Shown here: one piece after another, positions 4,933 to 36,400 of the stretch | Numbering within the stretch: the stretch's first letter is position 1 | Layout of the letters: each line of letters starts with the position of its first letter | IMG/VR virus record: IMGVR_UViG_3300034691_000045 | Span: 1-37,465 of that record | Origin: a virus | Lineage: Duplodnaviria > Caudoviricetes | Length of the DNA: 37,465 nucleotides | Strand: one strand, 5' to 3' | Program-made: the position numbers and the translations under genes | The notes under the pieces: generated by a model | The model's input: only the letters and a program-made list of their open reading frames with translations | The model's database searches: none | Told to the model about the DNA's origin: nothing

Positions 4933-5397
4933 CTAGCGGGTATCTGCGGGCGGCAGAGAACCGCGGCCGGCATCGAGCGCGAGGTACGCCAGAATCACGG
5001 CGCGGGCCGCTTCCCAGCCCTGGCAAACGTGGCAGGAGTGGCCCACGGCGGCCAGGTCTGCAAGCCACTGCGACTGCTCGCTCGTCGGCTTCGGCTTGCG
5101 CCCTTGCCGTTTCATTTCAATGCGCAGACCGCAGAAGTTGCCACGGGGCACCGGTAGGTCCAGATCCGGGACACCCGGCTTCACGCCCTCGGCCTGGAGC
5201 CCCACCGCGACCGCGGCATACCGCTCGCCGCCGTTGGGTATGGCGTGCAACAGGCGCAGTTCGGGGCGTCGGCGCTCCTCCCAAGCGGCCCAGGCGATGA
5301 GCGCGCATTGGTCCTCGTGCTCGGTCGGCCAGACGATCGGGTTGCGGGCCTTGCGGCGGCCGTCGAAGAGGTCAAGTTGGGTCGGGATCGCTGTCAT
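4933..5397 (-). CDS. VRR-NUC domain nuclease
   Basis: HAIPNGG, EGVKPGVPDL, IEMK, SEQSQW motifs. Confidence 0.9.
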   Translation of the reverse strand: MTAIPTQLDLFDGRRKARNPIVWPTEHEDQCALIAWAAWEERRRPELRLLHAIPNGGERYAAVAVGLQAEGVKPGVPDLDLPVPRGNFCGLRIEMKRQGRKPKPTSEQSQWLADLAAVGHSCHVCQGWEAARAVILAYLALDAGRGSLPPADTR

Positions 5398-7329: not shown

Positions 7330-7637
7330 TGGGGGCTCTCCGGGGGTTGGTCGGTAGGGTGGGCAGGGTCAGGGGCCGCGGATGGCTCTACGGGGCGCTG
7401 GTGCGCTCTGGCGGCCATCCGCTGCACCGGGTCGGGGTCGGGATTGGACCGCGGCGCCGGATCGAGAAACCAGGCCGGGTCGCGACCGCGGGGGAGGCAC
7501 CAGGCGCGGATCGCCTCCGGGGTCCAGTCGGCGGCGGTGCGCGGGTGCGCCTCGGCGTCCAGGTCAGCCGACAGGTCGGCCGGGTCGGGTAGGCCGGTCC
7601 AGGGCTGGGGCCCGGGGGAGGGGTTGGTCATGGACAT
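7326..7637 (-). CDS. Proline-rich hypothetical protein
   Basis: 103-aa ORF coupled on both sides. Confidence 0.55.
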   Translation of the reverse strand: MSMTNPSPGPQPWTGLPDPADLSADLDAEAHPRTAADWTPEAIRAWCLPRGRDPAWFLDPAPRSNPDPDPVQRMAARAHQRPVEPSAAPDPAHPTDQPPESPQ

Positions 7638-9013
7638 ATTTGGACGCTACCAGGAACAACCGCCGCCCCGAATTGTTCGCGCAATCGCTTCACCACCACG
7701 TCGTTATCGAGTCGCACCACGCGAACCTCCAACCGCAACGCCGGTTCATTAAGTGCGGCGGCTACGGATGACCGCAGCCGTTCCTCAATCGTCGGCGTGC
7801 GTAGATCTTCGGCGGCTGGATCAAGTTGCAACGTCAAGTGCCCGTCACTCAACGCGACGAGATTGCAATGACGGGCTAGTTGCGCGGCTATGCCAGTGAT
7901 CTTTAATCCGTCGACCAGGCGATGCCACTCGGCGGTGTTGGTGGGCAGCTTCCAACGAAATTGCGAGCACGCCGGATCGGTGGCGCGATTTTGGTCTTGT
8001 ATCATTCCAAGCGCCTTGACTCCCTCGCTCAGTAAGGCGGGCTCATATTGATTGACGTCGAAACCGCCCATGGCGATCTTCTCCGGCAACGGCAGTCCGC
8101 GGCGCCGGCTCTCCCTCGTGCACCACCCACCAAGCACTTTGGCGTTCGTGTCGCGCGTCCGGGGATAGATTGCTTGTGGATTGACTCCAGATTTCTTCAA
8201 AAAGAGCATCGCGGTCATTAAAACCTTGTCCCCGGTAATTTCGTCAAGGCGCTGGACCGCATCATCAAGCCGAGTGCGACAGTCCGCCACGCCGATGCTG
8301 GCTTCGTGCGCGTCCTGCGCGGCCTTATCGGCAACCCGCTTTGCTTCCGCTGATTCTAAAATAGAGCGCGCCACGATCTTCGCTTGCTCGCTTAGGTTCA
8401 GCGCAAAATCGGCAAGGTTGTTTCCAGTTAACTCAGGGACGAATGATCCTGTTCTTCTCACTTGAGGAATGATCTTTTCCAAAACCAATTCCTGGAACGG
8501 CTCAGCGTTTGGTGTGTTGCACATCAAAGCGAATTGATAGGCTCCATGCTCGTTCACCCACCGGCGATTGATGGTTGCTCCTGATAGCAATTTGACGCTG
8601 CCGAGCTTCTTGTACTTCGGTTTAATTTGGTCATAGTACCAGTCGCACGACTTAGCATTGCTCCTTGAAATAAAGTCTTGACCGTCATGTTTCGACGTTA
8701 TTTTGTAGGTATGCAGCAGCGCATGCAGTTGATCGAAGTCCAGCCATCCGTCTTTGCTTTCGATCCCCTCAATGATAAGAACCTCACCGCTCATAGTTTC
8801 ACCTCGTACCCCATGCAAAAGATCGTGGTGGTAATTACAAACGACAATCAAGTTGTCCAGGTGGTCATCTGCCCATCGCTTAGGGTAGGTGACGTGATGC
8901 ACCGCATCCGCGCCGGCCCCGCACAATTCGCACCGATTCCCCGCCCGCTGCCTGGCGGCCCGGCGTAGCGACCGCCACGCCGGGCTGTCGAGATAGGCGC
9001 GATAGCTGGCCAT
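7628..9013 (-). CDS. Fusion: HNH endonuclease + BRO-N antirepressor + coiled coil + DnaX tau C-terminal-like domain
   Basis: CELCG..HHVTY..DNLIVVCNYHH (HNH); VNEHGAYQF..FQELVLEKIIPQVRRTGSF (BRO-N); EWHRLVDGL..GIAAQLARHC..LREQFGAAVVPGSVQ (tau domain V-like). Confidence 0.8.
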   Translation of the reverse strand: MASYRAYLDSPAWRSLRRAARQRAGNRCELCGAGADAVHHVTYPKRWADDHLDNLIVVCNYHHDLLHGVRGETMSGEVLIIEGIESKDGWLDFDQLHALLHTYKITSKHDGQDFISRSNAKSCDWYYDQIKPKYKKLGSVKLLSGATINRRWVNEHGAYQFALMCNTPNAEPFQELVLEKIIPQVRRTGSFVPELTGNNLADFALNLSEQAKIVARSILESAEAKRVADKAAQDAHEASIGVADCRTRLDDAVQRLDEITGDKVLMTAMLFLKKSGVNPQAIYPRTRDTNAKVLGGWCTRESRRRGLPLPEKIAMGGFDVNQYEPALLSEGVKALGMIQDQNRATDPACSQFRWKLPTNTAEWHRLVDGLKITGIAAQLARHCNLVALSDGHLTLQLDPAAEDLRTPTIEERLRSSVAAALNEPALRLEVRVVRLDNDVVVKRLREQFGAAVVPGSVQICP

Positions 9014-9023
9014 CGGTCATACA

Positions 9024-9638
9024 TCACGGCGCATCGAGCGGTTGCGTGACCGGCCGCTCACGGGCGAACCGCGCCAACCCGAGCGCGTGCAGGTCCTCGG
9101 CATGGCGATCCAGGAAGGCGCGACGCTGGGCGAGCGGATCGACCAGCGGCGCGGCGGCCTCCGGATCGTCAGGGACCGCTCCGTCCGCCTGGGGCAGTAC
9201 GGCGGCGGCTACCGGGACCTGCGGCAGCAGCGTGCGGATCGCTTGCAGGTGCCCGAGCGCGGCCTGGTGCTGGTCGCGGGTGCGCGGTGGGGACGGCAGG
9301 TAGGTCGCCGGCTGGGCCGGGCGATTGGAGCGGGCCAGCTTGCGGAACTCGCGCGGACCCGGAGGCCAGGCATCCTTGCCGGTCGGCATGACGCTCAGGG
9401 CGTGCTGGATTTCCTCTTTGCTCAGGTCGTGGATGTGCGTCCACCACGAGACTTTCGCGTCGCGCACATCCGCGGCCGACTTCATGTCGGCCGACCAGCG
9501 CCCCTTGAACTCGTTGCCAAGCTCACGGAACAACCATGCCAGACACGACTCTCTCCGGTGGATCTTGATGTCCGCAATGTTGCTCGTAGTCGAGTCGGTT
9601 GAGTTCGCTGAAGGTGGGTCGGTCGGGTCGCTGGCCAT
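9024..9638 (-). CDS. Replication protein P-like (helicase loader)
   Basis: LF..L...F.GRWS, AK..W, WPPGPREFRKL pattern; GGAGG RBS; directly after the O-like gene. Confidence 0.65.
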   Translation of the reverse strand: MASDPTDPPSANSTDSTTSNIADIKIHRRESCLAWLFRELGNEFKGRWSADMKSAADVRDAKVSWWTHIHDLSKEEIQHALSVMPTGKDAWPPGPREFRKLARSNRPAQPATYLPSPPRTRDQHQAALGHLQAIRTLLPQVPVAAAVLPQADGAVPDDPEAAAPLVDPLAQRRAFLDRHAEDLHALGLARFARERPVTQPLDAP

Positions 9639-10380
9639 GGTTGCCTCCGGGGGTGTTGGTGTGTTGGCCTTGGTTTGTTTCCCAAGTCCTGATTGCTGCT
9701 CTCCAGTCGCTCATCGGCTTCAGGGACTTTCCGATTACCCAGCCAGATGAGTTGTTGTAGTTCATGAAACGCTCAGGATCGATGGCATTCCCGCGCTCAC
9801 GGCAGTAGGCGCGGACCTCCTCAACCGTGGGAGGAACAAATCGGGCGCGGCGGGGAGGGGGTTGCGGCGCAGCCGCCTGCGGTGTCTCAGCAGGAGTCGA
9901 GTCGGTCGGGCGCCCCTTCTCCCCCTCTTTCCGGTTCACTGATTGGTTATTGATTGGTTCGTGTCCCGTTTTTGGTACTGCTCCAGTCCCGTTTTCGGGA
10001 CTGGTCTGGGTCCCGTTTTTGGTACCGGTCCCGTTTTTGGTACCGGTCCCGTTTTTGGTACCGATTTTGCGTTTTTCGACCAGTCCCGTTTTTGGTACTG
10101 GTCTTGTTTGTCCATCCTCTCGGCCGATCACCCCGACCAGTTGGTAGTGAGTCCGTCTTCCGTTTCCCCGATCTGCGGAGATCACGCCAACTTTCTCTAG
10201 GTGTTCAATGGCCAACATCACTGTCTTCCGGTCAAGTTCAGTATCCATTGCTAACCGCTCGATACTTGGGTAAGCCGTGTGCATTTCGTCGGCGCGATCC
10301 GCGATCGAAAGCAACACGAGCTTTGCGCTGCTGCTGTTCACAACTTGCCGCCAAGCCCAGTGGGTAGCGTCGTTACTCAT
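9523..10380 (-). CDS. Phage replication initiator (O-like, N-terminal winged HTH)
   Basis: AKLVLLSIADRAD..AYPSIERLA..ELDRKTV HTH; internal GTKNGT iteron repeats; C-terminal FVPPTVEEV..DWRAAIRTWE domain. Confidence 0.88.
   Translation of the reverse strand: MSNDATHWAWRQVVNSSSAKLVLLSIADRADEMHTAYPSIERLAMDTELDRKTVMLAIEHLEKVGVISADRGNGRRTHYQLVGVIGREDGQTRPVPKTGLVEKRKIGTKNGTGTKNGTGTKNGTQTSPENGTGAVPKTGHEPINNQSVNRKEGEKGRPTDSTPAETPQAAAPQPPPRRARFVPPTVEEVRAYCRERGNAIDPERFMNYNNSSGWVIGKSLKPMSDWRAAIRTWETNQGQHTNTPGGNHGQRPDRPTFSELNRLDYEQHCGHQDPPERVVSGMVVP
9963..10098. repeat. Lambdoid origin iterons within the initiator gene
   Basis: GTCCCGTTTTTGGTAC at 9963, 10010, 10028, 10046, 10083 and variant GTCCCGTTTTCGGGAC at 9986. 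Confidence 0.85.
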
Positions 10381-15149: not shown

Positions 15150-15371
15150 ATGCCGACCGATACCAGACCCACCCACGACCCCGAGCGCGAGCGCCTGATC
15201 CACTTGGTCGGCTATCTGCGCGGGATGGCCACGCGACCGGTCTATGGCGCGGCGGCGCGTGCCCATCTGGATGCCGCCGCAACGGCGATCCTGGAGGGCC
15301 TGGCGGGCGTGGAGCACCTGCCGGGGGCCTGGCCCCAGGTCCCGCCCGAGACGCCCCAGGGGGCCGCGTGA
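15150..15371 (+). CDS. Hypothetical protein
   Basis: 73-aa ORF, GTGA coupling to the rep gene. Confidence 0.6.
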   Translation: MPTDTRPTHDPERERLIHLVGYLRGMATRPVYGAAARAHLDAAATAILEGLAGVEHLPGAWPQVPPETPQGAA

Positions 15372-16264
15372 GCGACCTGGAGGCGCGCATAGAGGCGACG
15401 CGGGCGATCGCCAGGACGCGGGGGAAGAAAGCGGTAGCCGGTCCTTTGGAGCCGCCCGCACCAGCTCCCGCTGGGACGCTTCCGAAGTGGCCTGAGCCGG
15501 TACGCGGAGTCCCCAACGGGATGCTGCGCTCTTCCTTATTTGGAGCCGTCGCCAGGGGACCGCGGGTATTTCTCACCGGCGTTCACGTTGCCAGTGTTGC
15601 CGGAATCGACCTGCTCTACACTGGCCCGCGGCTCGATCAGGCCGACCTGGACGTGTGGGAATCATGCCTGCACCGAGCGCGACACGCCCCTCTGACCACG
15701 CCGATAGCCTTTACCGCCAGAGAGTTTTTACGATCCATTGGGCGCTGCTCCGGGGGCAAGGACTTGGAATGGATCAAGAACGCGATCCGCCGCCTGACTT
15801 CCGCGAAGGTGGAGATTGTCGAAAAAGGAAAGCCGGCGAGGTCGGGTAATCTGCTCGCCAAGTACGAGCGCGACGATCAGGACCAGCACTATGTCGTCTG
15901 GGTCGATCCGGAGATTTCCGCGTTCTATGGGGTGAGCGACTGGACGCAAGTCCAATGGGAGCAGCGCCTGAAGCTCAAAGGCATGGCCCTTGCTCAATGG
16001 CTGCACGGCTTCTACGCCACCCATGCTAAACCCCATCCACTCAAGGTCGAGACCTTGCACCGGTTGTGCGGCAGCGAGACCAAGGCGCTGAACGACTTCC
16101 GACCGAAGTTGCGGGTTGCACTGGAACGGGTCACCGCCGCGACCGGCTGGACCTGGACCCTGGGCGCCGACGACTTGGTGCGCGTCGAGGTCGTTCCAAG
16201 CCGCAGCCAGCGCCAACACCTGATGCACCGGAAAGGGCCGACAGACTCGTTTTCCGGGCGTTAA
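15368..16264 (+). CDS. trfA: TrfA-family plasmid replication initiator
   Basis: LPKWPE.VRGVPN..LRSSLFG, YTG.RLDQ.DLDVW, LAQWLHGFYATH..P.PLKVETLH.LCGS motifs; iterons directly downstream. Confidence 0.85.
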   Translation: MSDLEARIEATRAIARTRGKKAVAGPLEPPAPAPAGTLPKWPEPVRGVPNGMLRSSLFGAVARGPRVFLTGVHVASVAGIDLLYTGPRLDQADLDVWESCLHRARHAPLTTPIAFTAREFLRSIGRCSGGKDLEWIKNAIRRLTSAKVEIVEKGKPARSGNLLAKYERDDQDQHYVVWVDPEISAFYGVSDWTQVQWEQRLKLKGMALAQWLHGFYATHAKPHPLKVETLHRLCGSETKALNDFRPKLRVALERVTAATGWTWTLGADDLVRVEVVPSRSQRQHLMHRKGPTDSFSGR

Positions 16265-17627: not shown

Positions 17628-17860
17628 GCGCCCCCGTCTTCATCGTCACCTTCCGCCCGCCGCGCACCGCAGTCGTCGGCGCCCCCGTCATCCCGACCGT
17701 CGGCTACCGGGTCGACTACCGCCAGGAGGCCGAGGACGCGATCAGCGATGCGGCCGTCGCCGCGGCGCGCGAACTTCCGGGCTGGCTGTACCTGCACTGC
17801 CGCGTCGAGGTCAAGATCCCCGCCGACTCCCACCACCACGCACAGAGGATCGCCGCATGA
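17624..17860 (+). CDS. Hypothetical protein
   Basis: GTGA overlap, GAGG RBS. Confidence 0.55.
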   Translation: MSAPVFIVTFRPPRTAVVGAPVIPTVGYRVDYRQEAEDAISDAAVAAARELPGWLYLHCRVEVKIPADSHHHAQRIAA

Positions 17861-19179
17861 GCACCGTCCCGATGACCTACGAACAACAGCGCGCGGTCGC
17901 GCTCACCCCGGCCCTGATCCCGTTGTCTGACATTGAGCGGATGGCCGGCGCCATCGCCAAGTCCCAACTGTTCGGCGTCAAGAGCCCGGATCAGGCGCTG
18001 GCGCTCATGCTCATCGCGCAAGCGGAAGGCCGCCACCCGGCCATCGCCGCGCGCGACTACCACATTATCCAGGGCCGCCCGACGCTCAAGGCCGACGCGA
18101 TCCTGGCCCGCTTCCAGGAAGCGGGCGGGCGGGTCGAGTGGCACGCCTACACCGACACCAACGTCGACGCCACCTTCACTCACCCCTCCGGCGGCAGTCT
18201 GCGCCTGGAGTGGACCATTGACCGCGCCAAGCAGGCGGGCCTGCTCGGAAACGACACATGGAAGAAATTCCCGCGGGCGATGCTGCGGGCGCGGGTGATC
18301 TCGGAAGGGGTACGCACGATGCTGCCGGGCGTGATGTGCGGGGTCTACACACCCGAGGAGGTCAGCGACATGGAGCCGGCGCGCCCGCGGCCCACCAACG
18401 TGCGCAACATGGGCCGCGCCGAGCGGGTCGATACCGCGCCGGCCGCCACGCAACCCGCCCCCGAGCGCGCCAGCGCCCCGCAGGAGCCGCCCCAGACCCC
18501 GGCCGACCCTGACCCACGGACCCACACCGCGAGTTCGCCAGCGACCGACCAGACCCCGCCCCCCGGCCCCTACATCAGCGAGGCGCAGCACCGGCGCCTG
18601 GAGGCGCGCATCCACGAGATGGGCCTGAAGCGCGAGCGCGTGAAAGACTGGATCGCCCGCGCCTGGCGGGTGCAGCACCTCAACGAATTGCCCGAGGCCC
18701 TGCACGACAAGCTCGATGTGAAGCTGGAGGAGTGGGCCGCGCAGGCGCAGTTGCGTGCCGAGCGCGAGGCCGCCGAGGCCGCGCAGCAAACCGCGGCCGA
18801 GGTCCAGCCTAGCGCCGCGGTGCTTGATCTGCGCCGGCAGGCCGCCGCCGCGCGGGCCGAGGCCAACGCAGACAGCAACCCGCCGGCGCGCGCCGATGCC
18901 GACTGGCGGGCCGCGGAGTTGAACGCACAGGCCGCCAGCCTGTACGCGCAGGAGATCGCCGCCAAGACCGAGACCTACGATGACCGCGCGCGCCGCCTGG
19001 AGCAGGCCGCGGCCGAGCGCGTGCCCGGCGCCGACGATGATGCGGGGGATGGCGAGGCGATGACCGGCGAGGTGTTGCCGGCCGCGCCGGACCCGGCCCC
19101 CACGCGAGGTAAGAAGCGCGGTAAGGCCCCGGCGCACGATCCGGAAACTGGCGAGTGGCTGGACGCGGCGGGAGTATGA
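17857..19179 (+). CDS. RecT/Redbeta-like single-strand annealing protein with long C-terminal extension
   Basis: YHIIQGRPTLKAD, WTIDRAKQAGL..WKKFPRAMLRAR.ISEGVR..PGV..GVYTPEE; acidic tail HDPETGEW. Confidence 0.8.
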   Translation: MSTVPMTYEQQRAVALTPALIPLSDIERMAGAIAKSQLFGVKSPDQALALMLIAQAEGRHPAIAARDYHIIQGRPTLKADAILARFQEAGGRVEWHAYTDTNVDATFTHPSGGSLRLEWTIDRAKQAGLLGNDTWKKFPRAMLRARVISEGVRTMLPGVMCGVYTPEEVSDMEPARPRPTNVRNMGRAERVDTAPAATQPAPERASAPQEPPQTPADPDPRTHTASSPATDQTPPPGPYISEAQHRRLEARIHEMGLKRERVKDWIARAWRVQHLNELPEALHDKLDVKLEEWAAQAQLRAEREAAEAAQQTAAEVQPSAAVLDLRRQAAAARAEANADSNPPARADADWRAAELNAQAASLYAQEIAAKTETYDDRARRLEQAAAERVPGADDDAGDGEAMTGEVLPAAPDPAPTRGKKRGKAPAHDPETGEWLDAAGV

Positions 19180-24088: not shown

Positions 24089-24428
24089 CCCCCGGTCCCC
24101 GATGAACGTCGTCGTCGTCATCGCCGGGAAGCCGGCGCTCCCGGTGCGCGCCCTGCCGTTCTGCATCGACTGGGAGCGTGTCCGGGAGATTCCTGGTCGA
24201 CGCGAAACGTGGGATGCGATCTTAGGGTCGTTGGATACCTATCGCGCGGGACCCAAACTCAATCGGTATACCGCCTATCCCCGGCGGCAATGGCTGGCCG
24301 ACTGGAGATCGTTCTGTGCAGCCGAGCGGATCGACAAGGCCGCGCTGGAACGATTACCGGCTGGTGTGTTCGTCTGGAAATACGACCTGGATCAAGCGAC
24401 GGGGCATCCCGCGCCGGCGCTGCCCTAA
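24081..24428 (+). CDS. Hypothetical protein
   Basis: 115-aa ORF whose stop overlaps the giant gene's stop. Confidence 0.55.
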   Translation: MTSPRSPMNVVVVIAGKPALPVRALPFCIDWERVREIPGRRETWDAILGSLDTYRAGPKLNRYTAYPRRQWLADWRSFCAAERIDKAALERLPAGVFVWKYDLDQATGHPAPALP

Positions 24429-27400
24429 CCCCCAGCCCCGAACGCTGCCGCCGCCTCCTGCCTGAGTTCCGGAGACAGCGCCTTCAGGAACCGCGCGCTG
24501 CTGGTCAACTTCAGCGACTTCACCCGCTGGCGCAGTTGGGCATGGGTCCACTTGATCGGGGTCTCCGGGTTGGTCTTGTTCCACCCCGCAATCTGCTCCT
24601 TGGCCGCCTGCACCCCGGCGGCATCGCCCTTGAGTGCCGCGCGCGCCATGTGGTCCATGTAGGCCGACTCCATTTTCTTGCGGTAGGTGTCGCGCTCCAG
24701 GATGCTGTACTTCTGCTCGTTGAACTGCGCCACGCGCACGGGGTTGAAGCCGATCGCCTTGAAGATCGACTCGGTGCGCGAGAGCGGAATCAGCGGCGTG
24801 CCAAACCGGTCTTGCGCCTCACCGGTGAGGATCGCCGAGGTCCCATCCACCAGGCCCTTGATGGCGCGCGGCATGGCGGCGTAGGCGGCCCGGCTCCAGT
24901 TGCCGCGCGCGGCCTGCTCGGTGGCGGTACCGAGATCCTTGACGATGCCGGCGATCGGCCCCCACAACTCCGACTGCTCGCGGGCCGATCCGATGTTGCC
25001 TGGCTTCAGTATCCCGGTGCCGGGGATCAGGTTGCCCATGCCGACACGACTGGCGATGTCGAACGGCAACCCGGCGCGGCTGATGCCATGAGTGACCACG
25101 GGGCCGATAGCCTCGCCCAGCAGGGCGTTGGCCCACCGGTCCAGTTCCTCCTTAGACTGGAAGTTGTGCCCGAACCACTGCATCAGGGTGTCGATGATGT
25201 CCTCGGCGTCGTCGGCGCCCGGCAGTCCCCCGAGTCCGGCCCCGACTACCAGGGCGGCCAGCATCAGCGAGCGTTGCTTCAGCGGCATCCGCGCGAGCAG
25301 TTCGAGGTAGTTTACGGTGAACATTTTGAAGGTGAACAGCGGAGCGCCAAGCCCGCGCGCCCACACCGGCCGGTTCTCCTTGCGCATGACGAACTGCGTC
25401 TGGTTCACCGCCTCGGCGGCATAGTCATAGGCGCCCGCGTCCTTCAGTCCGTTGCCGAGCGCCTGGTTGTAGGCGGCGATGAACGTCACCTGACGGTTTG
25501 CTTGCTCGGCGAGCGAAAAGAACCCCCCCCATACCGTCATCACAAACTGCGCGTTGGGGCCGCTCATGAAGCCGCTTGGGCTCAGCGTCCCGCCGCGCGC
25601 CGTCGCCATCAGGTTGTAGATGCCCTGGGGCGAGATCAGCCCCTCCTGCTCGGCCTGCAGGTAGGCTTTGCCGAGCGCCGTCGCCGGGTCCGGCCGCCCC
25701 TTGCGCCCCTTGAGCACCTGGGCATAAGCGTTCTTCAAGAGCCGCGTCACGTTTCCCGGCTGATGGGTCAGGTAGGGGGCGGTGACCATCGGCACCTGGC
25801 TGAGGTTGGTCAGCGCGGAGGACACCGACGCCCCCAGGTACCAGGCGAACATAAACTGCCGCAGCCCGGCGAACTCCTCGCCCGGATCGGCCAGGTAGTC
25901 GCGCAGGTTGATGGCGTAGTCGCGCAGATCCCCGTGGCCCTGGGGGATCGCGTCGATGGCATAGCCCACGTCCCCGGCGTGCAGGTTGTTGGAGGCGAGC
26001 CGGGCGTTGCTGACGATGTAGCTGGCCAACACCCGCTGCGCCTCGGGCGAGTAGCCGGCGATGCCCTCGCGGTGCAGGGTGCGCTTCAGCGCCGATGCCT
26101 CGGCCGCGGCGAGCCGGATGTACTGCTGCATCAGCGCCGCGGTGTCTTTGCCGTCCTGGCTGGTGGTATCGATGTGGTCGGCGAAGAGCGCGAGGGTGTC
26201 CATGTTGAGCCCGCGGAACAGCTTGTGGCCCTCCTCGCTGGTGATGCCGTGGTGGACCTCCTCCCCCGGTCCCTTGGCCGCATCGATCGCCTTGAAGGCG
26301 TCCATCTGCTCGGCTTCAGAGGCGTACTTGCGGAAGAACACCACCTTGCGCTCGGTCTGCCCGGTCACCGGGTCAGTCTCCTCAGCCCATACCGTGACCG
26401 CGAACTGACCGAAGCGCATCAGCGGGAAATAGGCATTGTCCTTCAGATCCGCGACCCGCTCGGCGATGCCGTCGATGCTCGCCTGGGTGGCGTCGATCTT
26501 CTTGACAAGGGCGTCGGCTTGCTTGAGCCCCATCTCGGCCGCGTCCAGATTCCTGGTGGACTGCGCCAAGGCCCGCGCGGTGCCCTGCTGGGCTTTCTGC
26601 GCCGCCGTCAGGTCGGCGTGCGCCTTGGTATAGGTCTTGGCAGTAGCACCGTCCAGGGCCTTCTGAGCGCGCGTCAGGGCCTGCTGCGCCGCGGTGTCTG
26701 CCACCTGGTCTGCGCCATGCTCCCCGCGCATCAGCGTGACCATGTGCCGCGCCTCCTGGAAGCGCTGCACCGCGTCCTCGCGCAGCGGGCTCAGGGCCTG
26801 CTCGGCGTTGCTCGCGGCCTCCGCGACGTTCTCCCCCAGGATCAGGCGCGACAGCCGCCCGCTCATCGCATGGCGCACGGGGGGCGGTAGATCGGGGTGC
26901 AGTTCCTCCAGCAGCGCGCGCAGCGCCCCGGCCTGGAAGGTCTGCGCGGTGCTGTCGAGGCTGCGGTGGGTGGCGGCCAGCGCCTGGGTGTAGCTCGCGA
27001 CCTGGCGCGCGTTGAGCCCGCGGGCTTGCAACTCGGCGGGGCTGTAGCGGTGCTCGGCCAGCGTCCCCTCGTTGAGCGCCAGTTGGACCGCGGCCAGCTC
27101 GCGCGGGCTCATCGCCCCGCGCACCAGCTTCGCCGAACGCCAGGCTGCGCGCGGCCCCTGCTCCATCTGGGTGAACCAGTGCGGGGCCAGCGCCTCGGCC
27201 TCCATGGCATAGCTCGAATTGGAGTCGGCCTGGCGCGACAGCCCGTCATAGACCGGCCGGAACTCGGGCTGGTTGAGTGCCAGGTTGCGCGGGGTGCCGA
27301 CGGTCTTGTCCCAGCCGCGCACGCGCTTGGACGTGGCCCGGCCGGGGATGTTGTAGCCGTAGGGGGCGTAGCGTTCAAAGGCGGCAGCAATGCGGCTAGT

Positions 27401-30400
27401 GAGGGTGGGCGTGCTGGCGACCCGCGGCCCGGCCGGCGCCCCGCCCAGGGCGTAGCGGATGTCGGGGGAGGGGCCGAAAGCTCCGGTGTTATCTGTCGCT
27501 GACTTGACGTTTTCCGACTTCAATATTATCAATTCCATGTGTTTGTCGGCCGTAGCCCCCTCTATCATCACTGAATCGTACCCGCGATCCAATAACCACG
27601 ATCTCACTTTTTGTGGGTTGGTGTCGATCTTATCCGAATCAGATAATAGTTGCGTCTCGATCTGGCGGTTTTTGAGTTTTACAAAATATGGATTTTCCGA
27701 ATTTGAATAAAACGCTCGCACCTCGCCGCCGTATTGGGGGCTAATCGCGAACATCCGGTTAGGAGTGAAAAAGAACCCTATTTTCGATCCTTCCGTTCTT
27801 GTGTTCGTTCCCATCTTGTCCGGTTCAAATGTCGTGAAGGTCGGGTCTTTGTCTCCGCGATAGAGTGCAACAGGCTCCCCCGCTTGATCGACCATTGCGC
27901 TATTGCCGAACCAGCGCGCAAAGTTCTGCCACGCCAACCCCCCATCCGGTGCCCGCTGCTCGCCGAAGCGCGCCTTGGCCCAGGCCACCACGGCGGGGCG
28001 GTAGGCGGACTCGGTGAACTCTCCGGCGGTTCCGGATGGTTCCCCCGCCCGGCCGGTGGCATAGCGGATGTCATCACCCTTGGTTCCTTTCCGCGCAATG
28101 CGAACGCCGTTTTTCTCCAACTCTGCGCGCAGTTGTGGCGTGACCGTGTTTTCAGGAATACTCAGCCTGTTCTTGTTGACGATCGCCGCAATCTTCTGCG
28201 CTACCTCTGAGTCAGGAACGACTCGCTTGATTCTCAGGTACCGAGAGAGCACAACCTCGCGCCCACCGGGAACCTTGGACGCCACCACGCCGCTGTTCCA
28301 CTTGTTTGGTCCAACTTTTTTGACTGATCCTTCCGCTTGATAACCGCTTGTTATCTCGCTTATGGGAACCTCGACTTCCACGGTCACAAGCTGGGGACGC
28401 TCTACCCCATCATTCTTCCATGCGGCAGTGAACTGGTCATTCAATGGAACAGGGGAAGCGTGGAAGTAAGGGGCATACAGTGCCCACGTCGTCCCGCCAC
28501 CTGGCTTTTTAAGCGGGAACTGCCCTTTATACATCCCGTCAGTCGGAACCAAGTCCGGCCGTTCCTCGGAACGCATCCACTTCCCGACTGGCTCGGGCTT
28601 ACGCAGCGCAAGATTACCCATCTCGTCGGTCATCTTCGCCGACATTGGCGGATACAGTTTGCCGTCGATCATCGACATAGCGCGGTAGAGTGTGACCGTC
28701 TTTCCTGCGTCAAACTCCTTGGCTTGGGATGATGGCACAAGGCGCGGATCAGCCTGGTTATCCACTCCAACGTCAGCCAGGTATTCGGGAGCAAATTCGG
28801 TATCGGCCCGCCCGGTTGAGAACCGCCACCCGCCCGTTCGCTCACCGGCCATCTGCCCAAACCTTGCCCGCAACTGCGCCCGCACCCGATCCTCCCCGGT
28901 GCGGTTGTACTGCGCCACCCCGGCGACGATCTCGCGCAGGTCGGCGTCGGAGAAGTGCAGCACGAAGCCGGCCTTGCGCAACCAGGCCCGGATCGCGGCA
29001 TAGACCCGGCGCAGGAAGGGCAGGTCGGCCTGGGCGTTGACCTCGGCCAGGTGCGCCAGGAACTCATCAGCCGCTTCCCGGCGTTCGTCCAGGTTTTCCA
29101 TGGACAAACCCCGTGCGCGGGCGTACAGGGCAACGTCGGCCTGGCGGTCGGCGATCAACTCGTCCAGGAAGGGGTTGAGGGTTGGGCCGAACGCCTGGCG
29201 TAAGCCACTGTGAAACGCCTCATGACTGAGGACCGTCACTATCCCATCGCGCACGTCGGCCAAATTGTCCGCCACCGCCCAGATGGTCCCCTTGGCGCCC
29301 TTCTCGCCGGGGATGAACACCGCCTTCGCCGTCGCGCTCGGGTTGGCCTTGCGAGCCTCGCGCAGCCCCGCCACGGCCGCCGCGGGCAGTTCCCCTTCCG
29401 TCTGCACCACCCGGAGGTCGGCCGCGCGCGAGAGCCCCTTGAGCTTGGCAAACAGGGGTTGCAGTTTGGCGTCGAGGAAGGCTTGCGTCAGGCGCGGCAG
29501 GTCTGGGGACCGCGTGCGGGTCTGGGTCGGCACGCCGGGGAGGTTGCCGAGCGAGAAAAGCGCCTCGCCCTGGTCATCGACAGACTCCTCGTCCTCGCCC
29601 TGGTCCGCCGCATCCGCCTGTTCTTCGGCTGCCGCATCGACCACGACCGACTTATCCTCGGTGGACAGCAGCAGGTCCGCAGTCAACCGGTCCAACTCAT
29701 CGGCCTTGTCGCGCAACTCGTCGGCCTGCGCGAAAGGCTTTGAATACTCAGCTTCCAACCGCGGAATCTCGCGCTGCGCCTCCTTGAGACCCACAATGCG
29801 GTCCTGATTCTTCCCCTCGATGTGCGCGAGTAGTCCCTGCGCCAAAGTGCGCGGGGTGGTGTCCGCGCCAAACTCGTAACTGCCGCGTTTGGTGGCAAGG
29901 ATCGACACGAAGTCGTCGGCGTGCGGTTCCAGGCGCGTGTTGTCCTTCACCGTCCAGGTGGCGCTGATCCCGTGCCCGGCGAAGATTCCGACCGACAACG
30001 GGGGTAGATGATGGCGAGTGGGATAATTGGACCAGGGCAACAACGTGCCTTTGTTCTTCGGGTTGTCGTGCCAATCCTTATCGGCCTGATCGTAAGCCGC
30101 GGAGTCTTGCGCCCGCAGCTTATTCGCCTGCCCTTGATAGGCAGCAATCAGCGCCTTGGTGATATCGCCAGCCCGCTTGTTCTGCGCATCTTCCTGGAAC
30201 GAAAAGGCGGTGGCGGTCGCCCGCTTGGGCTCGAAGATCAAGAGCCCGCCGTCGATCGTCAGGTCTTCGAGTTGGTCGCGGTATTCGCCCTGCTCCGGCG
30301 TTTCGGCGAGAGCCTGCTTGACCCATGCCTTCGCCCGATTGAGTCGCCCAAAGACATCGCGGCGGGCTTCTTGGTAGGCGCGTTCCAGTGCCGCCATGCG

Positions 30401-33400
30401 GCGCACGTCGGCCTGAAGGTCAGCCCGGCGCTTGATGCGTGGATCGCCACTGAAGGCGGCCATCGCCTCGCCTGCGCTCATGGTGTCTTGCGACACGTCC
30501 TCGATGGTGCGCTCGATCAGGTTCTTGCTGAGAATCTTGTCGACAATGATGCCCTTCTGCTGCACCTTGTCCCAGACGAAGGTGTCCACCGTGCGCTCGG
30601 CACCGATGTTGAGGACCTTCACTTCACTGAACAGGTTGCCGAAGCGGATACCGCGGCCGTTGCGTTGCAGCCAGTTGGAGAGGTTCCACCAGACATCCAT
30701 GTGCAGCAGTAGGGAGACGCGCGTCTGCACGTTCACCCCGGTGCCCATGGTCGACGTTGATCCGATATAGACCCTGATCTTTCCGGCCCGCACTCGCCCA
30801 TGCTGCGCCAATCGCGCCGCTCGCCGCACATCGGTCGAGCCGCTGGTCTCTTGCGCAAAGGCGATCTCTGCCGCCGGGATTCCGCGCTCGATTAACTTCC
30901 TCTTCAGTTCGTCGTAGATCGAGAAGCGCCCTTCTTTGTTGGGCACCCCAAGGTCAGCAAAGACCAACGCAACACCATCGATTTTGATGGTCTTCTTGGG
31001 GTCAGTCGGGTCCTTCACGGAAATCCCGGTGGTGCGCTGGTACTCGCGAAACACCGTGTCGACCGCCTTGTTGGTCTTGCTGTCGGCCTCATCGGGATTA
31101 GCCGGGTCGATCATCCGCATATCCATCGCCGCCTTGCGCCCGTCGGTGACGATGTTCAGCATGTTGTCGGGCAAGGCTTGGCGCGGATTCTTGCGCACCC
31201 GCTTCGCCCGCACGATCAGCGTCTCTTGGAAGGCCGCCAGGGTCGGGGTCTGTGGCACCACGATCTGCTCGGGCGCCCCTCCCGTCATCGCTGGACGCGG
31301 CACGCCGGCCTCGGCCGCGGTCATCACGTCGAGCCGGCGATAGACCGCGCGCAGCATCTCCGGGGCGTTGTAGAAGCGCCGGAAGCGCACCACCTCGCGG
31401 AAGCCGCCGCCCTCGGGGGCATACTCGGACGCGACCCCAATGTCGCCGTACTCCGATGCCCAACGGTCAAAGTGATGCAGACCGGACGCGCGCAACGCGG
31501 GATAGTCCAGATACCGCTGAATGGTGTAGACCTCGGCGACCGAATTGGATACCGGGGTCCCGCTCGCCAACACCACGCCGCCGCCGAAGGTGTCTTGCAG
31601 GTAGCGCGCCTTCATGAACAAACCCCAGGCGCGGCCCGATCCTTTGGGGTTTCCGAGCCCTTTCACCTGACCTTGCAGTTTGGTATAGAAGGCTAGGTTT
31701 TTGTACTCCTGCGCCTCATCGACAAACAGCATATCGACGCCCAGATCCTCGAAGCTCGTCCCCTGATCCTTCTCGCGAATATCGCCGAGCGTCTTGAGTT
31801 TGGATTCCAGTCGCTTCTTGGCCTTCTCCAGGGCCTTGACCGCCTGGCTCGGTGGCTTCTTACCGCGCGCCGACCAACTCCCCCCTCCGGTGTCCGTCTC
31901 GCGCGCACCGCGCAACGCCTCCTCCAGGTCCTCCAACTCCTGAGCGATCCGCTTCATCTCGGTATCGGGAGATACCGGAATCCGGTTAAAGCTCTCATGG
32001 GTGACAATCACCGCATCCCAATTGTTGTTGGCGATTCGACCCAGCGCCAACCGCCGCTGCCGGGCGTTATCGCCAATATGGATCGTCAGGATATTGGCGT
32101 TCGGATAGAGCCGCAGGAACTCGGCGCGGAACTGCCCAACGGTGGAGCCAAGCACCGCGTACATGGGTTTCTTCTTCACCCCGGTGCGCTTTAACTCCAT
32201 GCCCGCGGTAATCATCTCAAAGGTCTTACCGGTTCCGACCTCGTGTCCCAGGTAGGCGTCCAGGTCCTGCTGAATGCGCCACACCGCGCCGGCTTGGTAG
32301 TCGCGCAACTGCTCGTGCGGACTCTGGCCAGGGAATGCCTCCTGTGGCTTTGCTGCGACGTAATAGGGATGCTGGAATTTGCGCAGCACCTCGGCGTTGC
32401 GCAAGTCGTTGTAGACCCGTCCCATGGCCTCGGAGCGGTAGCGGTCGGCCCAGGTCCAGCGTTGGAACTCGTCGCGGATCGCCTCCAGTTTGGCGCGGGC
32501 CGCCTCGGTCTGTTCCTCGTTGACGACTTGGCGGACCTTGCGCCGGCCGTCCTCGAAATACTCCACCGGATCAGTGACGCGCGGCACCCCACCGTTGAGC
32601 GCGAGATCCAGCAGGTCCAGCAGATGGGCGCGCTTGGTGCCCCAGGTGACGGTCGCCGGCGTCGATGACAGGATGGCGGCCTGGTTGCGATTGGCCGCCG
32701 CACCGTTCTCCCCGCCGATTTGCACATGCCACTTACCGGTCGGCCTGGCGTAGCTGACGATCAGCGCATCTTGCCCGCGGTAGTTCAGGTCGAGCAGATG
32801 AGACACGAAGTCGCGCACCGTCTCGGCCGGGACCCAGTTCGCGCCCAAGTTGGCATGGATCTCTTGCGGGGTCAGGTCGGGCGGCTGGATCGCCTCCAGT
32901 GCCGCGACATTCTCCTGGTAGGCGTCATCCACCTCGGCCGCGGTCTTGGCTGCCGTGAGCTTCTCGCGCACGTTTCCGCTCAAGTACGCATCGGCCGTCA
33001 CCCAGCCGGCCAGCGGATCGTTGTAGACCGTCCCGCGTAGCCCCTCGCGCACCGCCTCGAAGGGTTGGCCGGTCAGCGACTGCATGTACTTCCAGTCCAC
33101 GCGCCCGCGGTAGTTGAGCGCCGCGGCGAGCGCATCGAGCGGACTGTCGGCGTGGGTCGGGGCCTGCCGGATCGCCACCACCCGCTCGGTGAAGATATCG
33201 GCCAGGCGCCCGACCTTCTGCGCCTCGGCATCCCAATGCTCCAGGGCGAGCACCGCCGGGGCGTCCGGATCGGACCAAAACGCCTTGGCGTTCTCCTTGA
33301 GATTGAGCGGCCCGTGCGCCTTAACGAAGGCGTCATACTGCTTGCGTAGCCCCTGGCGCAGGCGCTTCAACTCCTGGTCGTCGGCTTGGCGCAGCTCGGC

Positions 33401-36400
33401 GTTGAGCACCGCGCGCCGCCCCTTCATGACCTCCAGGTAACCGCGCACGCGCGCTTGGTCGTCGGCCTTGAGCGGCGGATCAAGCGGGTAGAGCATCCCT
33501 TCGCGCTTCACCCACAAGGCACCCTCGTGCTCGGCAAAGCCGCCGTCCTTCACGTCGCCCACTTCCGCCGACACCGCGTACATGGACTCGTCGGCAAAGG
33601 CGGCCTGGCCCTCCTCCATCATGACGGCACCCGGCAGTCGGGCCAGCAGCGGCAGTACCGTCTCGCCGATCGGTTGGTCGCTGGGCTCCATCGCCGGTTC
33701 GTAGGCGTTGCCGTAGCGCCCGGCACGCCAAATCATGCGGGTTGCCATCTGCTCGGGGTGGCGGTGGTAATACTCGTTGACGTTGGCGGTCTTCTGGCCG
33801 TAGGTGCCGCGCTCGTCTCCGGCCTCCTTGTCGAGCGTCACCGCGCGCACGTCCTCCATGCCTGCCAACTCCATCGGCTGGGACTCGCCCCAGGTCTCGG
33901 TCAGGTCAGTTTTGTCCCCGGCCTTGCGCCGCAGGAAGATGATGTCGGTGGTGACCGTGGTCATGCCCGCTTCCTTGAAGGCGTTCTCGGGCAGGCGCAC
34001 GGCGCCGATCAGGTCGGCCTTGGCGGCCAGGGCCGCGCGCACCTCGGGGCCGCCCTTGGCGATCTTGTCCAGGGTCCCGCGCGAGGTGATGAAGGCAACG
34101 ATGCCGCCGGGGCGTACCAACTCGATCGACTTCAGGAAGAAGTAGTCGTGCAGGAAACGCTTGCCAGGGTTGTACTTCTTGTCGACTGGGGCAAAGTCGG
34201 CAAAGGGGACGTTGCTGACCACCAGGTCGAAGTAGCGCTCGGGCAGCTTCACATCCTCAAACCCCGACTGCTTGACCGCGGTGCGCTGCAACACCTGGGA
34301 CGCCAGGCGCGCTGAGATCGGATCAAGGTCGATCGCCATCAGTTTGGATGCCGCCTCCATCTCCTTGGGCATCATGGCGAAGAAGTAGCCCACGCCGCAG
34401 GAGGGGTCGAGCACCTTGCCCCCAGCGAAGCCCATCCGCTCCAGGGTCGACCACATGGCGCGCACCACCGCCGGGTCGGTATAGTTGGCATTGACGGTAG
34501 AGGCCCGCGCCGCGGTCATCTCCTCGTAGCTCAACAGTTGCTCCAGCGCATCAAAGCGCCGCTGCCAGGCCGGTTCCAGCCGGCGGTAGCTGAACAACTC
34601 ATTGGCGATCCCGCCCCAGCCGTGGAACTGCACCAGGATCGCCTGCTCGGCGGGCGTGGCCATGCGCCCCGCGGCTTCAATCTCCTTCAGAAGGCGGATC
34701 GCGCGGATGTTGTCGGCGAAGGCTTCCGCCTTGCCGGACGGGATCAAATCATCAGGGCGGGTGACGGAGAAATTGCCGGTGGCCGGAATCGCAGTGGCGT
34801 CTCCGGTTCCTCCTGTTCCGTCGGGACCCTCAGCAGGTTGTTGAACACCAGTTCCATCGCCTGGTTGTACGGCAGTCCCCGTGATGTCAGTTCCGCGCCC
34901 TGATCCTTCGCCGCTTCCTGAATCGTCACGCAGGTCTCCCGCAGCGTTCCCGCCTGCTCCAGGGCCGCGAACGCCGCCGGTCGGTTGGTCTTCAGATCCA
35001 ACCACACCTGGTGCGCCCACCCGGTCAACTTGGTTTCCACGTTCGTCCTCGGTCAAGTAAGTGGTGGATGGCCCGGCCTCGTGCTGGAACGGTTCCAGCA
35101 GGAAGGAGTTGATCTCCTCGGGTCCCAGCGGCTCCAGGTAGGCGACCGCGCCCAGGGCCTCGGTTGCCTCGCCCTGGCGATGCGCGTCGTCGTAGGCGGC
35201 AAAGCCTGGCGGTTGCGCGCCCGGCCCGCGTCTGTCCTCAGTATACGCATACCAATAGTGCTTATCTGCGGACTCGATCCCGTTGAGCGCGGCATAGCGC
35301 GCGCGCAGGTCGGCCTTCAACTCCTCGGCAAGCGCACGGATGGCGTCGCGTTGTGCGGTCAGCGGGTCTTGAAAACTGCCCAGCGCCTTGGGTTTGCCGT
35401 CGACCCAAGTGACGTGCTTGAGCATCTCGTGCCACATGGCCGAGAAGGCGATCCGCTCAGTCCCCGTCGGGTAGGGGGTTCCGCTGTACATCAGGCCCTT
35501 GGTGTACTGCCCCTCTTTCACGAAATCGCTGACCAGATAGTCGGAGCGCCGCTCCGCGCCCATCCAGTCATAGATCGACGCCTCCCAGGAGCGCGCCCAC
35601 AGCTCTTGCGGGCGCTTCCAGTAATCGCCCAACTGCGTGGCCTGGTCGTAGAAGTCGGTCTCACGCTTGATGCCGTACTTCGGGAACTCCCACCCGTCGT
35701 TCTCCAGGAACGCCGCGGCGGCATCCAGACGCCCGCGCTTGGTCTTGGTGTCAAACCCGTAGCCCACATCGGACCGGGCGCCGGTCAGGATGCTATCCAG
35801 GACCGATTCCAGCCGGGCCGGGTCCAGGCGGTGCATCAGCGCCGCCTTGACCAAAGCGGTCATGCGCCGGCCCTCGGGGGTAGCGTCAAGGGCATCGTCC
35901 AGGGCGTGGCCCCACTCGTGAGCAACCGACCCGTCCCCGGCCGCCTTGGTGATGTTGATCGCCTTCACATGGCCGTCAACGATCGGCATTCCGTTATCGT
36001 CTAGTGCCTCTTTCCCGTCCTCAGTGACCCGGAAGATCGGCCACGCCGGCGCGAAAAAGGCGGACGCCTTCCCGCCGCGCCCGAGCTTGCCGATGCTGTA
36101 GTGCAACTCCCCGCCGAAGGACAGGTCGGTCTTGGGGTCAGCGCCGATCAACTCGGCCAGGTCGTGCAGTCCCTCGAAGGAACCGGTCAGGTGCGCCGCC
36201 CCGCTGGTGCTGGTCACATAGTTACCAACCGGCACCGCCGCAAAGTTGAACTCGGCCTTGACCAGTTCGGAGGTCGGCTCGCGGCCCTGAAGCACGTCCT
36301 TGAAGCCTTCGCGCACGATCTTTTTGAGCACCGGCCGCTTGGGCTCGATGAGCTTGGTTACGGTGTCGGCTTCGCCCTTGAGGAACCCATACCACGGGGA

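Follow-up and report, generated by a model that had tools for sequence, protein, structure and literature searches.

A phage HNH/BRO-type protein that ends in a trimmed copy of DnaX tau domain V

The gene considered here raises the question of why a phage protein should end in a domain through which bacteria hold their replicative polymerase, and what that domain could do there. It lies in a 37.5-kb virus record of an uncultured peat phage, referred to below as the window. The open reading frame at 7628..9013 (minus strand) encodes 461 amino acids arranged as an HNH domain, a BRO-N-like region, a coiled coil, a small alpha/beta domain and a trimmed tau domain V, the tau-like stretch making up the last ~104 codons (domain residues 356-461). 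Both a 461-aa and a 388-aa form of this frame occur in the protein collection that was searched.

A copy of tau domain V at the end of a phage gene

The end of this frame is a real copy of DnaX tau domain V, as the original prediction had read its last ~100 residues. A phmmer search with the domain against 1.84e9 representative sequences gave 293 matches at E<=1e-3; among the 150 listed of these (73 scanned with Pfam, the remainder judged by eye), the best reached E 7e-22 with 52% identity, and nearly all were DnaX proteins or C-terminal fragments of DnaX. The listed exceptions were the protein itself, two repeat-protein false matches (P0005, and P0060 of 5,487 aa, which was taken as another) and three non-DnaX copies. 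A profile built from the domain and 60 phmmer matches finds E. coli tau (5fku_E) at E 1e-20. In one AF2 model, the predicted fold places the same chain first among 48,161 (Z 10.6, rmsd 2.5 over 75 aa), and a second AF2 model likewise has it as the top predicted match (Z 10.7, rmsd 1.1 A over 71 aa); Foldseek also ranked tau chains first, with none at E<=1e-3. The Pfam family DNA_pol3_tau_5 (PF12170) matches at E 4.4e-6 and 27.4 bits, just under its cut-off of 28.8, a shortfall explained by the deletion of helix 6 described below. The phmmer result, the profile match to E. coli tau and the fold match together rule out a chance resemblance. As candidate sources, DnaA domain I and DciA are weaker in both sequence and fold (Pfam DciA E 0.007; fold matches of the core to DnaA domain I and the DciA N-terminal domain at Z 7.0 and 5.0, respectively).

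The core of the domain (residues 356-434, 7712..7948, minus strand), assigned from sequence and fold, has a type II KH-like fold and corresponds to E. coli tau 521-591, numbered here as in chain 5fku_E. No match to the AAA+ part or domain III of the DnaX clamp-loader subunit was found upstream of it in the window protein, and the NCBIfam DnaX models match residues 348-437 only, far under cut-off. The possibility of an assembly chimera, raised with the original prediction, is excluded by junction-bridging contigs from six peat runs of 2020, which may be one campaign. Logan contigs of two runs (X1 and X2, from either of which this DNA may derive) span the whole gene with zero differences, and those of four others (X5, X7, X6 and X8) bridge the fusion point near 7950 without a difference.

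The nearest sequences to the domain are the dnaX genes of Thiodictyon and Lamprocystis, with 58% identity in the core for Thiodictyon, which marks the donor as a member of the Chromatiaceae. At each of the 36 genome loci found, the tau end is complete and includes helix 6. Phylogenies place the window domain with these two genera, with moderate support and on a long branch, the core having a branch length of 0.5-0.6 against less than 0.25 for neighbouring DnaX.

The HNH domain, a likely internal start and relatives without tau

The protein begins with an HNH endonuclease domain (residues 3-70, 8804..9007, minus strand) that matches PHROGs HNH at E 1e-9 and, in fold, the HNH protein of phage GVE2 (Z 9.0). 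The alignment places the motif and zinc residues at H39, H40, N54, H63 and H67 and at C28, C31 and C59, one cysteine zinc ligand being replaced by histidine (H62), and nuclease activity is presumed for this domain. Shortly after it, M74 has a clear ribosome site upstream (8792..8805, minus strand, site and start codon as predicted from sequence), and the first start codon has none. In the window protein and in 18 of 19 relatives, the HNH motif is followed at a distance of 3-5 codons by a methionine, which is the case in 2 of 14 other HNH genes. The glycine codon before it is the purine-rich GGA or GGG in 15 of 16 rows, which are not independent of one another, against a background of 48%; anti-SD energies at the internal start are modest in many relatives. 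Since the methionine is conserved, the codon is biased and M74 has its own ribosome site, two products are likely from the one gene, as in Rpn systems: 461 aa with the HNH domain and 388 aa without it.

The BRO-N-matching part (residues 144-183, 8465..8584, minus strand) probably belongs to a domain of residues ~75-195. Its Pfam Bro-N match (E 4.9e-4) is partial, covering the C-terminal third of the model only, and its 21-23 bits fall under the cut-off of 25.6; the region has low pLDDT in the AF2 model. The PHROG anti-repressor (Ant) match reaches E 6.7e-10, and tblastn aligns the protein with genes annotated as antirepressors at 24-35%. The earlier naming of the gene as a BRO antirepressor had overlooked the HNH domain and the likely internal start. 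We use "antirepressor" as a family label, with repressor inactivation and DNA binding as putative properties. Long helices or a coiled coil are predicted at about residues 209-263 (8225..8389, minus strand; AF2 secondary structure, low confidence), followed by a small alpha/beta domain (residues 264-335, 8009..8224, minus strand), for which no family name was found.

A scan with the HNH part recovered 42 metagenome loci, 15 of which hold a complete protein of ~350-430 aa composed of an HNH domain, a variable DNA-binding-like middle, a coil and the small alpha/beta domain. These complete relatives end where tau begins in the window protein, and no tau domain V was found in six frames of 43 HNH loci. 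The closest HNH relative, L091, carries in the tau slot a different extension of 65 aa (L091:2446-2661), for which a Pfam scan gave no match and which may resemble TubC_N-like domains. As relatives end just before tau and this one carries another extension, the end position is a swappable slot.

The link of the window protein to this tau-less family rests on the HNH domain and the pre-tau domain and not on the middle: the BRO region gave no match to the middle domain of the relatives, and BLAST against L091 is significant in the HNH part only. For the small alpha/beta domain, hhalign of the window, L091 and P0039 (the second fusion, below) against 12 relatives gave 94% (E 9e-8), and the window domain alone scored 23.9 against the relatives compared with a shuffled maximum of 16.0. 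Judged by eye, the relatives occur singly, in mobile or island-like surroundings of varied kinds. A profile of this scaffold matched 10 of 380 genomes of the donor's family, through the HNH part only. The HNH genes of L091, L096 and L106-L121 form an unnamed family of ~350 aa with a conserved methionine and a purine-rich codon after the HNH motif and, judging from these features, are a candidate gene-within-a-gene nuclease system.

A deleted helix, a retained tail and other copies of the core

Helix 6 is cleanly deleted in the window copy. At the junction between core and tail (7711..7712, minus strand), the 24-aa stretch of loop and helix running from the TP motif to S617 (E. coli ~593-617) is absent by alignment, in a place covered by contigs of five of the peat runs (X1, X2, X5, X7 and X6). 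The gap between core and tail is 0 residues, against 23-36 in 142 of 142 DnaX rows (two DnaX rows that are broken, both false matches and the three non-DnaX copies having been set aside), which bears out the original prediction that the helix before the tail is missing and the tail itself is kept. The tail (residues 435-461, 7631..7711, minus strand) aligns with E. coli 618-643, the alpha-binding segment (PMC1888804). It keeps the equivalents of D621, L627, R628, F631, A633 and S639, has valine at those of I624, L635 and I640, and is changed at the conserved proline of the tail end (P642) and at the proline of the DP turn. On a leave-one-out profile of DnaX tails it scores 48.6 bits, above 35% of 142 real tails, a comparison that is favoured by the choice of profile rows for their likeness to the window domain; shuffled tails average -61.

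The core keeps 22 of the 33 positions that are at least 90% conserved in donors. Compared with the 8 nearest donor loci, its third codon positions are 38-45% identical, which is near saturation, and its second positions are 76-80% identical against the nearest donors, so the protein sequence has been kept. This codon pattern argues against free decay, though part of the history it records may predate capture.

Biochemistry of E. coli tau indicates what such a domain could bind. The main determinants for alpha are reported as L627, F631 and the last 7 residues, and the last 18 residues are required for binding (Jergic et al., PMC1888804). Native tau binds alpha at ~260 pM; the substitution S617P, which breaks helix 6, weakens binding ~1,200-fold (4.1 kcal/mol), and in isolation the last 32 residues have an affinity of 3.8 uM versus ~0.1-0.3 nM, which is 30,000-fold weaker (PMC1888804). 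Expression of tauC16 is lethal in E. coli even at low level, and so is that of tauC16-delta7, with a KD of 7 uM (PMC1888804). Binding of alpha by the core alone is described as undetectable (Su et al., PMC1888800), and cryo-EM places tau 530-535 and 562-566, both in the core, against the alpha fingers as a second contact (PMC4703070). Stretches matching both segments are retained in the window core. Taken together, the affinities measured for helix 6 and the tail and the contacts of the core make weak DnaE binding plausible and tight binding not. The S617P and 32-residue values in particular render tight sequestration of alpha unlikely, and the earlier suggestion that the protein sequesters Pol III is less well supported for this reason.

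The search for other BRO/KilA fusions to tau domain V, proposed with the original prediction, gave one, and that one lacks the tail. This protein, P0039 (471 aa, on one ENA contig), combines an HNH domain and a coil with the tau core, joined at the same place, but has neither helix 6 nor tail; it is 26% identical to the window protein overall and 44% in the core. It is the one fusion beside the window gene among the 150 phmmer matches listed of 293, and others may be among the remaining 143. A comparison of a single origin of the two fusions with separate origins gave an AU p of 0.52 over 73 columns, compatible with either. The tau V core also occurs as a protein by itself, lacking helix 6 and tail, in P0007 (89 aa) and in P0023, P0153 and P0154 (81 aa), which could be mobile-element genes or truncated calls. 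Two further proteins, P0018 and P0029, combine a full tau V end with a lipid A acyltransferase or biotin-lipoyl fragment and are probably assembly or gene-calling chimeras.

No further fusion was found in scans of IMG/VR viral contigs and of metagenomes, nor by word-index protein searches of low sensitivity, one of which did not return even P0039. The tau profile matched 357 of 380 donor-family genomes, with 10 candidates scored per genome; 17 genomes that gave additional matches were searched again, as was one whose single match was weak, and the 10 regions read held split or duplicated dnaX, DciA-like genes or chance matches and no fusion. The sole tau match among INPHARED phages was a host dnaX-ybaB-recR-htpG fragment, and 19 plasmid matches were annotated dnaX or lay mostly in chromosome-sized records. 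BFVD gave no match at E<=1e-3, and the domain combination was not found among 50,697 annotated phage records. In the main text of the openly accessible literature, no phage protein carrying or mimicking the tau-alpha contact was found described, in keeping with the earlier remark that no described system of this kind was known. Kazlauskas 2016 (PMC4889955) notes phage gamma/tau clamp-loader subunits, and its accessible text is without the words tau and DnaX. The parts are known; the combination was not found in this literature, the phage records or the IMG/VR scans.

With the gripping tail kept and the supporting helix lost, only weak docking on the host polymerase is likely. The reading that we put first, tentatively and at somewhat less than an even chance, is that the tau end is a low-affinity DnaE docking module that would bring a DNA-binding/HNH protein to Pol III forks. 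A captured and trimmed host domain would dock weakly on host DnaE and so place the DNA-binding protein, plus the nuclease in the long form, at these forks, where it might nick or slow chromosomal or competitor replication. The protein would oligomerise through its coil, and avidity together with tethering to DNA would assist DnaE binding of micromolar affinity or weaker. By losing helix 6, a tau fragment that was toxic and picomolar in affinity would have become a weak hook, tolerable to a phage needing host Pol III. We infer four elements of this reading: the two products, the oligomerisation, the DnaE affinity and the effect at forks.

Alternative roles, genomic neighbourhood and known systems

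What the four non-DnaX copies all share is the core and not the tail, and as P0039, P0007 and P0023 have a core without a tail, their shared function may not involve DnaE. For this reason, the main rival is a possible but rather unlikely Rpn-like gene-within-a-gene nuclease, in which a toxic long HNH form would be checked by the short form and the tau core would serve as a decoy for anti-replisome proteins of rival phages, or as a generic KH-type surface, any DnaE binding being incidental. The post-HNH methionine conserved in the window and 18 of 19 relatives fits such a system, as does the solitary placement of the relatives in mobile or island-like contexts, and Rpn provides a precedent for the layout (bioRxiv 2023.05.02.539157). 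However, this account leaves the intact tail of the window copy unexplained, most relatives work without a tau domain, and PADLOC has no model that matches the window protein, its models matching relatives through the HNH part only; toxicity and defence are hypothetical roles drawn by analogy. Elements of both accounts would be joined in a model that we regard as doubtful, a nuclease with a replisome-homing tau module, switched by its nuclease-less twin and either fork-targeted or bait-triggered, in which trimming of helix 6 and tail in each lineage would tune affinity.

The original prediction had also proposed recruitment of Pol III to the phage origin. The gene does lie directly downstream of O- and P-like genes identified with PHROGs, a P-like helicase loader immediately upstream (9024..9638, minus strand; phrog_109, E 2.3e-5) and an O-like replication initiator (9523..10380, minus strand; phrog_6643, E 1e-34). 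A replication factor whose BRO-N region binds the phage origin region and whose tau domain draws the Pol III core to the phage's own forks would suit this position and the retained tail, and the scanned genes of this partial contig showed no DNA polymerase. We nevertheless consider it improbable. A related O-P pair occurs in 1 of 380 donor-family genomes (Chromatiaceae; P 44% identical), where P is followed at once by a frame in which 12 of 15 residues agree with the beginning of the window VRR-NUC gene; in the window that gene lies 3.6 kb further on. Although this comparison is with one short contig, which breaks off after 51 codons of the next gene, the module there appears to lack the 461-aa gene together with the block that follows. 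Initiation can therefore probably do without the gene, its position beside O and P is weak evidence, and recruitment to the origin is less well supported. The GC content of the gene, 45-63% against 68-78% immediately outside, is as expected of an insert, and the comparison suggests an accessory insert and not a core initiation factor. Lambdoid phages already use the host holoenzyme with its own tau, and the window copy is without the DnaB-binding domain IV or clamp-loader part that would couple polymerase to helicase. The related O-P module and the donor clade make a Chromatiaceae host plausible.

Other genes of the window are recorded here as observations. The VRR-NUC gene (4933-5397, minus strand) starts with a QLDLF stretch, also seen in L143, whose letters PMC4703070 describes as a modified clamp motif; by this resemblance it may be a beta-clamp-binding-like motif and a possible second replisome contact in the phage. 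A TrfA-family plasmid replication initiator (15368-16264, plus strand; E 4e-18) adds a second initiator to O/P and hints at a plasmid-like state. The protein at 17857-19179 (plus strand) resembles RecT (E 3.6e-4, under cut-off) and continues in a long C-terminal extension, and at 24425-37432 (minus strand) lies a giant polyvalent protein of at least 4,335 aa, which runs to near the contig end and matches LPD1, an N6 methylase, an SNF2 helicase and ART-PolyVal.

Quite improbable is host shut-off, in which the domain, like overproduced tauC16, would pull alpha away from the clamp loader of the host. A phage with O and P genes depends on that holoenzyme itself, P0039 has no tail, and a copy lacking helix 6 would compete poorly with native tau at ~260 pM, against which stands the lethality in E. 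coli of tauC16 and even of tauC16-delta7 with its KD of 7 uM (PMC1888804). Least probable is that the domain is a neutral passenger, a piece of host dnaX that was joined on by accident and is in the course of decay. Great rarity (one other fusion found), long branches and successive losses of helix 6 and tail would suit this reading. Against it, the frame is open and the fold intact despite near-saturated synonymous sites, and although the two fusions share only 26% identity overall, their junction is the same and their cores are 44% identical.

The low-affinity docking module that we favour bears on a contact, that of tau and alpha, which is essential and a proposed antibacterial target. A natural deletion of helix 6 with an intact tail, together with tail-less forms, allows a direct test of which parts of tau domain V bind alpha, and the role of the KH-like core by itself is a question left open in PMC1888804. 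Through this locus, an unnamed HNH family comes to light whose members probably have a gene-within-a-gene layout and an exchangeable end domain.

Compared with known systems, the window protein shares with DnaX tau domain V (tauC16; PF12170; PDB 2AYA, 5FKU/5FKV chain E) a homologous KH-II-like core and alpha-binding tail, but it has no AAA+ part, collar or domain IV, helix 6 is deleted, and the domain is fused to a phage HNH/BRO-type protein. Phage antirepressors of BRO-N/Ant type are alike in the partial BRO-N match, the coil and the swappable C-terminal domain, and differ in that the window protein has an N-terminal HNH domain, a likely internal start and a terminal host replisome domain. 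DnaA domain I and the DciA N-terminal domain (PMC8216460) are replication-initiation interaction domains with the same type II KH fold, whereas the sequence and best fold match of the window domain point to tau. Rpn, as described by Zhong et al. 2023 (bioRxiv 2023.05.02.539157), resembles it in the N-terminal nuclease, the variable C-terminus and the mobile distribution, and also in the nuclease-less product that a likely internal start would give in the window protein; the nuclease is PD-(D/E)XK in Rpn and HNH here, and the short product is a small tail in Rpn, whereas here it would be ~84% of the protein. Finally, the Twort inhibitor of the host replisome, Gp168 (PMC8565349), is likewise a phage protein aimed at the Pol III holoenzyme, as the window protein may be; Gp168 is reported to block the beta clamp, whereas the part carried by the window protein is a captured host domain that would be aimed at alpha.
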